A stretch of 64,000 bases of DNA, from assembly GCA_965213675.1 (NCBI GenBank), contig OZ243916.1, positions 800,001-864,000 on the forward strand. The letters are read 5' to 3'. This document shows, one piece after another, positions 1 through 3,004 of the stretch. This stretch comes from an uncultured Candidatus Binatia bacterium (lineage in GTDB: Bacteria; Desulfobacterota; Binatia; UBA9968; JAJDTQ01). The stretch's first letter is position 1. Each line of letters opens with the position of its first letter. The position numbers and the translations under genes were made by a program. The notes beneath the pieces are model-generated. The model saw only the letters and a program-made list of their open reading frames with translations. It ran no database searches and had not been told where the DNA came from.

Positions 1-843
1 GATCAGTACCCGGTAGGCCGCCGTCGCAGTCGGCTCATTCCCGCCGCCGTTGTCCCGGTGAAAGTTGTAGGCGGCCGTCGCTTGCGTTGTAGCGTCCGCG
101 ACGTTGCAACTCGTTTGCGCGTACGCCTCGTTCGGGGCGGCAAGGCCAAGGAGCAGCGGCAGGCAGAGCAGGGCCGAGAACAGGCCGCGCCGCAGATTGC
201 GGGCGGCAGGATGGGAACCGGCAACGGCGCGGGCGGGAGAAGGATCGAAGCTGTCGGAAGAAGAAGCAGGCCGGCGGGTATCGGTGTGCCCGCCATCGGA
301 GAGGGAAGGCTCAGGACGGGAGGAAGAGCGCCTTAGGCGGCGCCACCACGAAGACGCGCGATCCGGCGATCCGGCGATCCGGCGATCCGGCGATCCGGCG
401 ATCCGGCGATCCGGCGATCCGGCGATCCGGCGATCCGGCGATCCGGCGATCCGGCGATCCGGCGATCCGGCGATCCGGCGATCCGGCGATCCGGCGATCC
501 GGCGATCCGGCGATCCGGCGATCCGGCGATCCGGCGATCCGGCGATCCGGCGATCCGGCGATCCGGCGATCCGGCGATCCGGCGATCCGGCGATCCGGCG
601 ATCCGGCGATCCGGCGATCCGGCGATCCGGCGATCCGGCGATCCGGCGATCCGGCGATCCGGCGATCCGGCGATCCGGCGATCCGGCGATCCGGCGATCC
701 GGCGATCCGGCGATCCGGCGATTATGGGTTGACTCAGGCCTTGTCAAGTCCTGAGCCAAACTATTTTCCGCGCGCCCCGCTATCTCCCCATGCCTCCTGC
801 CCAACGCCCGGATCCCATCTCGTCCTTCGTTCACCATGACCAT
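1..843 (-). CDS. Secreted/surface protein with extended N-terminus containing (RRIAGSPD)x15; 3' part runs off the window
   Basis: Hand translation: ATG at 843 with GGAGG 7 nt upstream; no stop down to position 1; reads MVMVNEGRDG...THN(RRIAGSPD)15 RASSWWRR...NLRRGLFSALLCLPLLLGLAAPNEAYA-QTSCNV..., a Sec signal-like h-region with AYA cleavage site. Not in the ORF track. Confidence 0.75.
   Translation of the reverse strand, partial: MVMVNEGRDGIRALGRRHGEIAGRAENSLAQDLTRPESTHNRRIAGSPDRRIAGSPDRRIAGSPDRRIAGSPDRRIAGSPDRRIAGSPDRRIAGSPDRRIAGSPDRRIAGSPDRRIAGSPDRRIAGSPDRRIAGSPDRRIAGSPDRRIAGSPDRRIAGSPDRASSWWRRLRRSSSRPEPSLSDGGHTDTRRPASSSDSFDPSPARAVAGSHPAARNLRRGLFSALLCLPLLLGLAAPNEAYAQTSCNVADATTQATAAYNFHRDNGGGNEPTATAAYRVLI
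361..722. repeat. Perfect simple sequence repeat (ATCCGGCG)x45 plus AT
   Basis: 360 bp of uninterrupted octamer from 361 to 720, read directly. Confidence 0.98.
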
Positions 844-1087
844 CGCATCGCCTCCGAAGCTGTTGCCCGACCCGCTGGCCCGCGCTGCCCATACCTCTGC
901 CGGTCATTGCCTGTCGCGTTTGGCGTACATTACGCCGAGTCCGGTGGAAATTCAATACGCGCGTGTTTGCATCCTCGCGACGACGGCAAGCCGGTATCGA
1001 CCGCTACGGAACCGCCGGCCGCAGCGCCGCCAGCCGTGGCTACAGGGTGTTGCGGCCCACCGCGTCGCCGGCGGCCGCGGCGTCCCG

Positions 1088-1250
1088 TTACACCCGCCTC
1101 ACTGCCCATACAACCTTGCCGAGGATGTGCGCGTCCTGGACGAGACACGAATACGGAGCATAGTCCGGGTTGGCGAAGATGAGCCTGAGGCGGGGCGGCT
1201 CGTTCCCGTCGTCGTCGGCGCCATGCAGGACCTCGACGTGTTTGGCGATG
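1088..1250 (-). pseudogene. C-terminal remnant of an S24 peptidase (LexA/CI-like repressor)
   Basis: LIAKHVEVLHG...PPRLRLIFANPDYAPYSCLVQDAHILGKVVWAVRRV resembles the S24 C-terminal pattern; no HTH or catalytic Ser region upstream; left boundary approximate. Confidence 0.6.
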
Positions 1251-1320
1251 AGGCAGGCCGGACGGGCGGTCGAAGAAGGGCTGTGTGGGGCGATTCTCGA
1301 CAAGTCGGTTCCGGCAAGGT

Positions 1321-1701
1321 TCATTCGGGCGGCCTGTTTTTGAGCGTATTCTGAAGCTTGCGGGCTTCGTCGACCAGGCGTTTGAGTCGCCCGCGGTCTC
1401 CATTGTCGATCATGTCGCCGCGTATTTTGGTTGCCATGATGTAAGTGTAACGAAAGGTGCGCATGATCAGTGGCACGAGATGGGCGGGCAGAGAGACGGG
1501 GGCGGCGTTTTCGCGGTTCCGGACGAGCGCGAGAATCTTCTTCCGTACGAACTCGGCGGGGGTGATGCCGTGGGATTGCGCGGCTTCCCGCACCTTCTTC
1601 CATTCGGAGTCGGAGAAGCGGACGCCGCGGTTCTTGCGTGCGGCATCGTGTTGCTGATCCCGGGCGTCGCCGGTTTCGGGGTCGGGGTGGTTGGCGGTCA
1701 T
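1321..1701 (-). CDS. Ribbon-helix-helix (CopG/MobC-like) DNA-binding protein
   Basis: RKNRGVRFSDSEWKKVREAAQSHGITPAEFVRKKIL fits a strand-helix-helix RHH pattern. Confidence 0.6.
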   Translation of the reverse strand: MTANHPDPETGDARDQQHDAARKNRGVRFSDSEWKKVREAAQSHGITPAEFVRKKILALVRNRENAAPVSLPAHLVPLIMRTFRYTYIMATKIRGDMIDNGDRGRLKRLVDEARKLQNTLKNRPPE

Positions 1702-1924
1702 GCTCTGGGGGCCTGGTGGCGGATCGACTCTGGGCTCGTACGGGCACCCTCGCCGATGGTGATGGTGGACCTGCCGGCGATGGTGCAGTTCTCGCTGTCC
1801 GCGACCCCGACGGGTATCGCCGCCGGTGACGGGCTACTGCTCGTGGTGAGGACGAACTGCCGGCGGCACTGCGGGGGCGGTGGGTGCCAGCGATGTCGCA
1901 CGGGTGCGAACGCACGATGCGCCC

Positions 1925-1953
1925 TTGCCTTCCTGTTGTGCTGCCCTTAGAAT
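1925..1953 (+). promoter_or_regulatory. Putative sigma70 promoter for the Calx-beta/Cys-rich gene cluster
   Basis: TTGCCT-17bp-TAGAAT about 125 bp upstream of ATG 2080. Confidence 0.5.
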
Positions 1954-2079
1954 GCGTAGCATTGGGGCTCGGCGTCGCTGATGCTGACCCGGGACTGGGG
2001 CGGTGCCGTGCGGGACTACACGCTTGGCTGGCGCCTCGCCCCCGCGGCCGGGCCCCCGAGCCCGAGAAGGAGGAAGGCC

Positions 2080-2598
2080 ATGAGACAGGAATCGAACAGG
2101 AAATCTTCATGGACCGCATGGTGCGTCGCCCTTGCCGGCGTCGTGCTGGCGGGGGGCGCCGCGCTCGCCACGCCGCAGGTGGCGCACGCCGCGGATGCCG
2201 GCGCAACCGAGGGCGACACGATGGAGTTCACGGTCACGCTCGGTGCGGCGCCGAACGGCTGGGCGGTGCGCTACAAGTACAAGACGGAAGACGGCGCAGC
2301 CGTCAAGGACGAGGATTACGAAGAGACCACCGGCACCGTGACCTTCAACTCGGGGGTCAAGGAGCAGAAGATCTCTGTGGACACGATTGACGACAGCGAT
2401 GAAGAAGACCCGGAAGTCTTCAAGCTCAAGCTCTACGACCAGGAGGTCAACGGGCTCTACCGCGGCGTCACCGGGTGGGTTACACCGACGTCCAACATCC
2501 GGTCCATGCCGAGCACGATGACGTTGAAGGGCCAGATCCAGGACAACGATCAAGCGGTCAAGGCGGGATGCGGGAACGCGGGTCAATACTGCGATTGA
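2080..2598 (+). CDS. Secreted single Calx-beta domain protein
   Basis: AGGAGG RBS; signal peptide ending AHA; EGDTMEFTVTL...YKTEDGAAVKDEDYEETTGTVTF...IDDSDEEDPEVFKLKL Calx-beta motif. Confidence 0.8.
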   Translation: MRQESNRKSSWTAWCVALAGVVLAGGAALATPQVAHAADAGATEGDTMEFTVTLGAAPNGWAVRYKYKTEDGAAVKDEDYEETTGTVTFNSGVKEQKISVDTIDDSDEEDPEVFKLKLYDQEVNGLYRGVTGWVTPTSNIRSMPSTMTLKGQIQDNDQAVKAGCGNAGQYCD

Positions 2599-2668
2599 TA
2601 CTGCTGCAAACCCGCGCCCGCCGCCGTCCATGGCGGAGAACAGCGGAGAACAAAGGGGGGCGAATGCC

Positions 2669-3004
2669 ATGAGAACCTCACACGGAACCTGTCTCCCATG
2701 TGTCCGGTTGCTCCCCCACCGGATCCTGCGCACGCTGGCGCTCGTCCTGTTGGCGCTTGCGGGCGGGCTCTTCGCCGCGCCGGAGGTCTACGCGCAGAAT
2801 ACGAGCGTGGATGCGAGCGCGAAGGAAGGCCGCAAGGTGACATTCGTGATCACCGTGACGGGATTCACCACGCGCGACAATGACGTTCGCTACTCATACC
2901 GAACGAAGGACGGCACGGCGGAGGCCGGCAAGGATTACAATTCGGCGGACAGCCATGTCACATTTCTTCGGCCACCTATCCCAAAGCGCAAAAACTCACC
3001 ATGA
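2669..3004 (+). pseudogene. Truncated secreted Calx-beta protein
   Basis: Signal peptide ending VYA-Q; EGRKVTFVITV...YRTKDGTAEAGKDY...VTF, then the domain breaks off just before the duplicated unit that starts near 3000. Confidence 0.6.

Follow-up and report, generated by a model that had tools for sequence, protein, structure and literature searches.

What does a perfect tandem array of an eight-nucleotide unit do at the 5' end of a gene for a very large surface protein, and is it translated? The question is posed by the left edge of a stretch of 64,000 nucleotides from an uncultured Candidatus Binatia bacterium (positions 800,001 to 864,000 of contig OZ243916.1, assembly GCA_965213675.1; G000:C1:800001-864000 in the coordinates used here), which we call the window throughout. 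An initial annotation, made from the letters of this stretch, had proposed a hidden phase-variable gene there, with 45 octamers translated between the start codon and the signal peptide. Comparison with paralogs in the same genome and with homologous loci elsewhere suggests that the array is probably a translated slipped-strand ON/OFF switch, now ON, that would gate a type Va autotransporter adhesin of about 2,500 residues, and it places the locus in a family of seven within its own genome.

The array was called by Tandem Repeats Finder at window positions 358-722 with period 8, 100% matches and zero indels; on the minus strand it reads as (RRIAGSPD)n and is free of stops in all frames. A perfect array of 45 units cannot arise by chance. 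The initial annotation was right about the repeat and slightly off in its length, which is 365 nt (45.6 copies) instead of 360 bp, and two further observations of that annotation hold as they stood: the frame from ATG 843-841, with GGAGG 7 nt upstream, runs uninterrupted through the array and a signal-like segment to the window edge (1..843, minus strand, 281 aa, 3' open), and the 57 codons from the repeat to the hydrophobic core contain no ATG, GTG or TTG in the signal-peptide frame (the other two frames of the same stretch contain two each). The predicted product consists of 41 residues, (RRIAGSPD)n, about 57 residues rich in Ser, Arg and Pro, and then NLRRGLFSALLCLPLLLGLAAPNEAYA followed by Q. 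The parts of the locus, in the direction of translation, are these:

927..955, minus strand: candidate upstream promoter P1, a putative assignment (TTGAAT 955-950, 17-nt spacer, TAATGT 932-927)
851..855, minus strand: Shine-Dalgarno sequence GGAGG, 7 nt 5' of ATG 843
723..843, minus strand: pre-repeat leader MVMVNEGRDGIRALGRRHGEIAGRAENSLAQDLTRPESTHN, comprising ATG 843-841 and about 40 codons
721..747, minus strand: promoter-like box within the leader open reading frame (ORF), with TTGACA at 747-742, a 15-nt spacer and CATAAT at 726-721
358..722, minus strand: octamer simple sequence repeat, 365 nt, 45.6 copies, (CGCCGGAT)n on the gene strand (Tandem Repeats Finder)
199..357, minus strand: post-repeat leader ASSWWRRLRRSSSRPEPS...SHPAAR, about 53 codons, rich in Ser, Arg and Pro, homologous in 22 loci
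311..335, minus strand: stops in the two non-coding frames after the repeat (TAA 335-333, TGA 313-311)
118..198, minus strand: Sec-type signal peptide NLRRGLFSALLCLPLLLGLAAPNEAYA, with n-region, h-region and AxA c-region recognised by eye and predicted cleavage at AYA before Q
1..117, minus strand: start of the mature passenger, QTSCNVADATT..., which extends left of the window to C1:793304

The 5' parts recur beyond the window. A Shine-Dalgarno sequence stands at an equal distance from the start in homologous loci (GGAGG, GGAGAG, GGAGGG or AAGGAGAG), the pre-repeat leader is homologous to leaders that begin MTIFNEGR..., MTIFKEGQ... or MTLFNET... at other loci, and a layout like that of P1 (TTGnnT, 17 nt, TAnnGT and a conserved leader of about 75 nt) precedes the Shine-Dalgarno sequence and ATG in homologous loci. 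A consensus scan of window positions 1-1400 for promoters and terminators returned no site of either kind, P1 scoring below its threshold, and Rfam gave no family for window positions 1-1500 at E up to 1. An antisense ORF is also present across the array (104..754, plus strand). Two other candidates at this locus were rejected: an out-of-frame ATG at window position 296 as the start, which is missing in a paralog, and export by the twin-arginine (Tat) route, since the RR pair is not conserved (homologs show RC, WR, RL and RH).

Evidence for translation comes from the sequence behind the repeat, in loci that share the same module. At 33 of 37 such loci exactly one frame, that of the signal peptide, is open past the repeat, for 90-499 codons and in most cases as far as the retrieved DNA extends (the exceptions are L023, L042, L062 and L069). 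In the same 33 loci the other two frames meet homologous TAA/TAG and TGA stops after 1-60 codons, for the most part after 8-12 and 16-21. The peptide from repeat to cleavage site is homologous between loci and 54-94 aa long, and when the post-repeat leaders were aligned with MAFFT, blind to codons, 684 of 760 pairwise gap runs were divisible by 3; total differences in leader length are multiples of 3 by construction, a constraint that individual gaps need not obey. In the pre-signal leader the third codon position is the most variable, with column entropies of 0.62, 0.53 and 0.77 at positions 1, 2 and 3 and with 1,542, 1,353 and 1,961 pairwise differences, counted over pairs that are not independent. 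Start codons in the signal-peptide frame are depleted over all loci (15 in 1,659 codons, against 49 in 1,626 and 39 in 1,626 in the other frames). Judged by this pattern of substitutions, gaps and stops, the stretch after the repeat appears to be translated in the frame of the signal peptide. Because this leader appears to be coding, and because neither it (in the subfamily of the window locus) nor the repeat holds a canonical start, initiation would have to lie upstream of the repeat.

A scan of the genome for comparable genes that join a simple sequence repeat to a signal peptide, an extension foreseen in the initial annotation, brings the number of loci with the same 5' module to seven. Across the whole 4.5-Mb genome, Tandem Repeats Finder (495 rows) reports just five perfect arrays with a period of at most 8 and at least 8 copies:

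C1:800358: unit of 8, 45.6 copies (W, the window locus)
C1:2407385: unit of 8, 32.6 copies (O2)
C1:3050133: unit of 8, 11.6 copies (O4)
C1:1134042: unit of 8, a different octamer, 8.4 copies (O3)
C1:3713837: unit of 5, 31.2 copies (O5)

All five sit in one kind of 5' module, just 5' of the signal peptide of a very large protein; from the signal peptide onward, sizes among the array genes are 1,992, 1,902, 1,873 and 5,570 codons. BLAST with the flanks added two further members, O6 (C1:2422617, with two octamer copies) and L7 (C1:2943093, with none). No Pfam family matched the pre-repeat leader, the post-repeat leader or the leader of O6 at E up to 1. The 378 nt 5' of the window array are 99.2% identical to their counterpart at O2, beside 45.6 versus 32.6 copies. 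In O2, O4 and O5 the frame of the upstream ATG is out of phase with the signal peptide and meets a stop soon after the array, in W, O6 and L7 it is in phase, and O3 has a stop directly before its array. The L7 gene (G000:C1:2942368-2943173) is frameshifted about 200 codons past its signal peptide, which may mean another indel of the assembly or a genuine pseudogene; its ortholog in a relative (L129, genome G001) is open for at least 502 codons.

Phase can also be followed across the wider set of homologs. The frame that reads TTGACA as Leu-Thr is open for at least 40 codons in 31 of 44 loci, most of them with an ATG and a motif resembling a Shine-Dalgarno sequence by eye, and an alignment of nine pre-repeat leaders has gaps of 9 and 15 nt only between the ATG and the TTGACA box, the variable stretch that adjoins the repeat differing by other lengths. 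Of the 33 loci whose downstream ORF is intact, 11 have an upstream start (ATG, GTG or TTG) that shares the phase of the signal peptide, a proportion of one-third that would be expected of a randomly switching family and also of unrelated frames. Loci whose arrays are too short to slip discriminate: the upstream ATG is in phase at each of three independent ones, O6 (two copies), L7 with its ortholog L129 (none) and L132 (4.5 copies, with at least 538 open codons), a result that chance would give about once in 27; the decayed locus L146 may be an exception.

The gene behind the proposed switch is, as had been predicted, a long adhesin of the autotransporter kind once it is followed to the left of the window. 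The frame from ATG 843 spans 512 codons to a stop at C1:799305-799307, and directly after it comes a 1,997-codon ORF in a different frame, the change of frame falling within about 25 nt. Pfam places He_PIG (1.2e-20) in the first ORF and fn3 (3.9e-11) and Calx-beta (2.6e-10) in the second, and the C-terminal 498 residues match the NCBIfam model TIGR01414 autotrans_barl (E 5.5e-8, 32.3 bits against a curated cut-off of 16); the same 498 residues gave no Pfam match at E up to 1, and the C-terminal 398 gave none against PDB sequences at E up to 10.

We compared L004:10800-12440 with Logan contigs of four public runs, contigs that can neither span nor count the array. In runs X1 (depth 46) and X4 (depth 19.6) the junction is covered by a single contig each, which is one base short at L004:11320 and carries a substitution at L004:11307, X1 being possibly the source sample, so that its support is not fully independent; the frameshift in the assembly lies at L004:11310-11330 (C1:~799310-799330). 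Without the base at L004:11320 the two ORFs read as a single frame, so that we most likely have here an uninterrupted gene for an autotransporter of about 2,500 residues, the frameshift being an assembly error or a minority variant. A C-terminal barrel, a Sec signal (by eye) and a repetitive passenger in one polypeptide are the marks of type Va autotransporters, and this gene shows all of them. The RNA run X9 contributed eight small pieces, one of them 38 nt inside the repeat, and is uninformative about transcription.

The same cassette is found well outside this genome. An exact search for four tandem octamer copies, in one genome per prokaryote species, gave at least 95 stretches; part of the matches listed are unrelated short arrays (Streptomyces, Burkholderia and others), and about 40 among the matches listed share the cassette architecture. 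The metagenome-assembled genomes (MAGs) that bear it are labelled Alphaproteobacteria, Rhodospirillales, Paracoccaceae, Pseudomonadales, Arenicellales (including the gammaproteobacterial family Ca. Poriferihabitaceae), Ca. Binatia, Nitrospira and Prochlorococcaceae. Several of their record names indicate a sponge origin, and we take the bin prefixes of the MAG records to stand for sponge hosts. In DNA identity to the post-repeat leader of the window, alphaproteobacterial and Poriferihabitaceae loci reach 80-82%, Arenicellales loci 71-74% and cyanobacterial loci 64-66%. At the repeat position, some homologous modules carry other units, namely ATTGCCGG, GTCGCCGG and CGCCGAGC (these in three further genomes, at the same spot), GTCGAGCC and AGCCG, all of length 8 or 5. 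Octamer word depth at L004:12340-12440 is 30,000-70,000 in runs X1, X2 and X4, the remaining bins ranging from below 10 to about 11,500; so high a depth means that the repeat is abundant metagenome-wide, consistent with a community in which many members carry many such loci.

Copy numbers beside near-identical flanks are 45.6, 32.6 and 21.6 in one set (flank identity 97-99%, the loci being paralogous or recombined and not one locus in a population), 13.6 and 29.6 in another, and 17.6, 15.6 and 42.6 in a third. As assembled, both phases are present among the homologs and copy number differs where the flanks scarcely do; we infer hypermutability within a population, and cleavage at AYA before Q, from these sequences. 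The 21.6-copy locus, L047, is the single octamer locus of the related Binatia MAG (G001:C1:828668-831827). Its flanks are 97% identical to those of the window, the 470-nt 5' module that it shares with W and O2 is 97% identical to both (regions compared: window 550-1244 and C1:2407087-2409152), and its gene is 87.5% identical to that of O2 and not to that of W, so that an upstream context like that of W is joined to a gene like that of O2. This mix indicates that the 5' module recombines between genes, and the module seems, from such comparisons, to serve as a site of recombination through which different adhesin genes come to stand behind one switch. The sharing of the cassette across MAG phyla implies, as far as sequence can tell, horizontal spread together with independent switching of many loci.

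Exact-pattern scans of metagenome contigs for the upstream junction and for the post-repeat block gave no matches, and a search for more short-array loci in Arenicellales and Poriferihabitaceae genomes gave known paralogs and the decayed locus L146 only. Three occurrences of the octamer stand somewhat apart. In L067 (Gammaproteobacteria MAG JAJDVC010000127.1), arrays of two different octamers, (GGATCGCT)n and (ATCGCCGG)9, follow each other head to tail directly after the ATG, a double array which suggests that units mutate and re-expand in place. In L039 (Tepidiformaceae MAG OY282446.1), 26.9 octamer copies lie 36 codons 5' of a signal peptide that begins with Met; an ATG precedes the array by 9 nt, and the context differs from the cassette. 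This may be an independent use of the octamer in Chloroflexota. The sole viral contig with the octamer, L140 (IMG/VR, 12.7 kb), has 14 tandem copies in a GC-rich intergenic stretch with no cassette around them.

Put together, the favoured reading of a translated switch would work as follows. Transcription would begin upstream of the Shine-Dalgarno sequence, and translation, by the evidence of conservation, would start at ATG 843. The ribosome would pass through about 40 leader codons, (RRIAGSPD)n and a conserved basic leader of about 53 codons before it reached the Sec signal peptide. Gain or loss of one or two 8-nt units would shift the frame into a stop 7 or 14 codons past the repeat at this locus (8-12 and 16-21 codons past it in most sister loci) and turn the gene OFF; a change of three units would keep the frame and leave it ON, as the present 365-nt tract would. 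Signal peptidase would then remove the entire N-terminal extension, and the mature protein would be independent of tract length.

Several observations weigh against this reading, besides the one-third share of loci in phase given above. It is unusual for about 240 residues to precede a cleavable Sec signal, and this extension has no match in Pfam or to the extended signal peptide region (ESPR). The codon-position signal in the pre-repeat leader is weak (212, 193 and 229 differences). Copy numbers come from assemblies, and the assembly of this genome carries at least one indel not seen in runs X1 and X4, so single-base accuracy is imperfect. TTGACA and (C/T)ATAAT adjoin the repeat, with the canonical 17-nt spacer in 10 loci, and a transcript that began at this box would lack ATG 843. 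A sister subfamily whose leader begins MSA..AW (the MSA subfamily) keeps an in-frame ATG right after the repeat, without a Shine-Dalgarno sequence, and in the decayed locus L146, where a stop cuts the upstream ORF, the post-repeat ATG may serve as the start. The proposal made in the initial annotation, a translated switch that is now ON, emerges strengthened by the open leader, the conserved Shine-Dalgarno sequence and ATG, the 11 of 33 loci in phase and the short-array loci, and complicated by the promoter-like hexamers and the post-repeat ATG of the MSA subfamily.

The hexamers deserve a fuller account. A scan of 44 loci found a pair in 37 and none in seven; two of the 37 pairs are not of the TTGAC type, and in the remaining 35 the spacer is 23 nt (11 loci), 17 nt (10), 20 nt (5), 15 nt (4, the window locus included), 19 nt (3) or 18 nt (2). 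All 12 hexamer positions match the consensus in 13 loci, and at the window locus the final two bases of CATAAT are the first two of the array. The interval from one hexamer to the other often holds a short hairpin of locus-specific sequence (mean z -1.26; z below -1.5 in 13 of 33 loci); none is present at the window locus. In six loci of the Pseudomonadales MAG OY762706 (L014, L052, L053, L070, L073 and L082) the post-array ATG overlaps a TGA of another frame, as ATGA, in 6/6 cases, and in three of the six (L053, L070 and L073) CATGAGT flanks the array on both sides; these loci hint at a duplicated start codon and possible coupling of termination and reinitiation.

Such a box would fit an alternative in which the repeat is an untranslated 5' leader, transcribed from TTGACA/(C/T)ATAAT, whose length tunes expression gradually through folding, processing or spacing, with frame irrelevant. 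The full-consensus hexamers of 13 loci, the 17-nt spacer in 10 (Arenicellales, including Ca. Poriferihabitaceae, and Pseudomonadales MAGs), the hairpins between hexamers and the ATG that follows the repeat in the MSA subfamily, on which L146 seems to depend, all speak for it, as does the hmw repeat of Haemophilus influenzae, which PMC12721329 describes as transcribed and folding into a target of RNase III. The window locus itself fits poorly: its spacer is 15 nt, the consensus scan found no promoter, and its subfamily has no start codon from the repeat to the signal peptide. The commonest spacer, 23 nt, is too long for sigma-70, and the post-repeat leader evolves as coding sequence in the signal-peptide frame. 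The post-repeat ATG lacks a Shine-Dalgarno sequence, whereas the upstream ATG has a strong one, and unit lengths are all 8 or 5, never a multiple of 3. We regard this explanation as unlikely. The HMW arrangement, an untranslated repeat between promoter and start, is not what the window locus displays; it may hold for the MSA subfamily, and at least there a device like that of hmw, or a mixed one, may be in use.

A second alternative is a coupled device with three states (fused, coupled and silent), in which the phase of the repeat sets where the upstream ORF stops and hence whether a downstream start is used for re-initiation, the candidates being the ATGA overlap of the MSA subfamily or a CTG or TTG at the first Leu of LRRGL. 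It draws on the overlap of the post-repeat ATG with TGA in the MSA subfamily (CCATGAG), where frames close after one codon, and on the Leu codon of xLRRGL, which is CTG, TTG or ATG depending on the locus. The subfamily of the window, however, has no ATGA. The Leu codon was rejected as a general start, the position being Pro in L047 and L065, and no Shine-Dalgarno sequence precedes it; the conserved stops, 150-200 nt 5' of the signal peptide, are too far away for coupling. As an account of the window locus we find such a device decidedly improbable.

Lower still we place the idea that the repeat is a neutral or selfish passenger in a mobile leader, with an unrecognised start or with many copies in decay. 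Some members are indeed damaged (O3 with its stop before the array, the remnants L131 and L127, and L7, frameshifted in the assembly), and the octamer occurs in tandem outside the module too, in Streptomyces, Burkholderia and the viral contig. Yet the perfection of the arrays (100% matches) argues for ongoing turnover, their place in the module is always the same, multi-kilobase downstream ORFs are intact in 33 of 37 loci, and the conserved off-frame stops and frame-preserving indels point to selection on the reading frame. That the array or its copy number is an artefact of assembly, an idea that the 1-nt indel unsupported by the X1 and X4 contigs and copy numbers taken from the assembly might encourage, is hardly credible given that many independent chromosome-scale MAGs contain arrays of 10-43 copies between the same flanks, and given the word depth of the repeat in three runs.

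The translated switch resembles known systems in parts. In the Neisseria opa genes, a CTCTT coding repeat lies in the leader-peptide region and slippage shifts the frame; the present genes share with opa a unit not divisible by 3 between start codon and mature protein, a multi-copy surface-protein family with a shared 5' end, recombination between copies and, most likely, separate switching of each copy (PMC3960869). They differ in the unit, which is an octamer (a pentamer at one sister locus), and in tracts of up to 45 copies or 365 nt; in the position of the repeat, which precedes the entire signal peptide within a long hydrophilic extension, where that of opa is in the hydrophobic part of the leader; in the downstream product, a giant autotransporter or Calx-beta protein; in the promoter-like hexamers and hairpin that adjoin the repeat; and in being common to several phyla of non-pathogenic, apparently sponge-associated bacteria. 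The heptamer repeat of H. influenzae hmw1A and hmw2A lies in the 5' untranslated region, and expression drops gradually with its length (PMC12721329). Like hmw, the cassette has a repeat not divisible by 3 just 5' of the body of a large adhesin gene, with promoter elements nearby and a possible RNA hairpin; unlike hmw, it shows coding-type evolution past the repeat, in the frame of the signal peptide, and the subfamily of the window has no post-repeat start.

In the tetranucleotide switches of the H. influenzae lic1A type, the repeat is in the 5' coding region and is accompanied by several potential ATGs, with expression levels that may depend on phase. A likeness to this type is seen in the MSA subfamily, where an ATG stands before as well as after the repeat. 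The present loci differ from it in their 8-nt unit, their much longer tract and, in the subfamily of the window, the absence of a second ATG. ESPR (PF13018) is an N-terminal extension ahead of a classical Sec signal in type V secreted proteins; the extension here is 4-10 times longer and contains a hypervariable repeat, and ESPR was absent from the Pfam matches of the 512-aa ORF (E up to 0.01) and of the leader pieces (E up to 1). Full-text literature searches for papers on this octamer, or on repeat switching in the symbionts of sponges, found none.

The surroundings of the cassette add some context. Upstream of it the ORF list has a 126-aa ORF (1321-1701, minus strand) that looks, by eye, like a ribbon-helix-helix or mobilisation protein, and two small plus-strand ORFs (1981-2598 and 2630-3004) with signal peptides and motifs like Calx-beta, also recognised by eye; these ORFs (1321-3004) hint at a mobile or island context. 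Elsewhere in the genome, outside the window, the rows of Tandem Repeats Finder include an array at C1:1574949-1579541 that resembles clustered regularly interspaced short palindromic repeats (CRISPR), with a 36-nt repeat, GATTCCGAGGCGTGATTGCCTCGGCCTCATTGAAGC.

To call the locus unusually long, as the initial annotation did, was fair; to treat it as a single hidden gene undersells a multi-locus cassette that is shared across phyla. A broader reading, which we advance tentatively and hold to be possible without counting on it, is that a mobile switch cassette (promoter, conserved 5' leader, Shine-Dalgarno sequence and ATG, short leader ORF, hairpin, TATAAT-like box, octamer repeat, basic leader and signal peptide) is exchanged among members of the sponge microbiome (Alpha- and Gammaproteobacteria, Binatia, Nitrospira and cyanobacteria) and grafted onto giant adhesin genes, so that mutualists, like pathogens, would vary their surface stochastically and locus by locus. 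The hexamers might then add a second control that depends on repeat length or on transcription-driven slippage, as at hmw, a combined device that has not been described so far.

The consequences of a translated switch would be both practical and biological. Genes in the OFF phase have no in-frame start and would be truncated or missed by gene callers, and assemblies from short reads break at arrays of this length. Protein export, too, would gain an unusual test case in a hydrophilic, hypervariable stretch of about 240 residues that precedes a cleavable Sec signal. Repeat-driven surface switching is regarded as a hallmark of host-adapted pathogens; here a similar logic appears in uncultured, apparently mutualistic bacteria, with many such genes per genome, which suggests selection for surface variation across the whole community, for example against host phagocytosis or phages, and a horizontal trade in regulatory cassettes.

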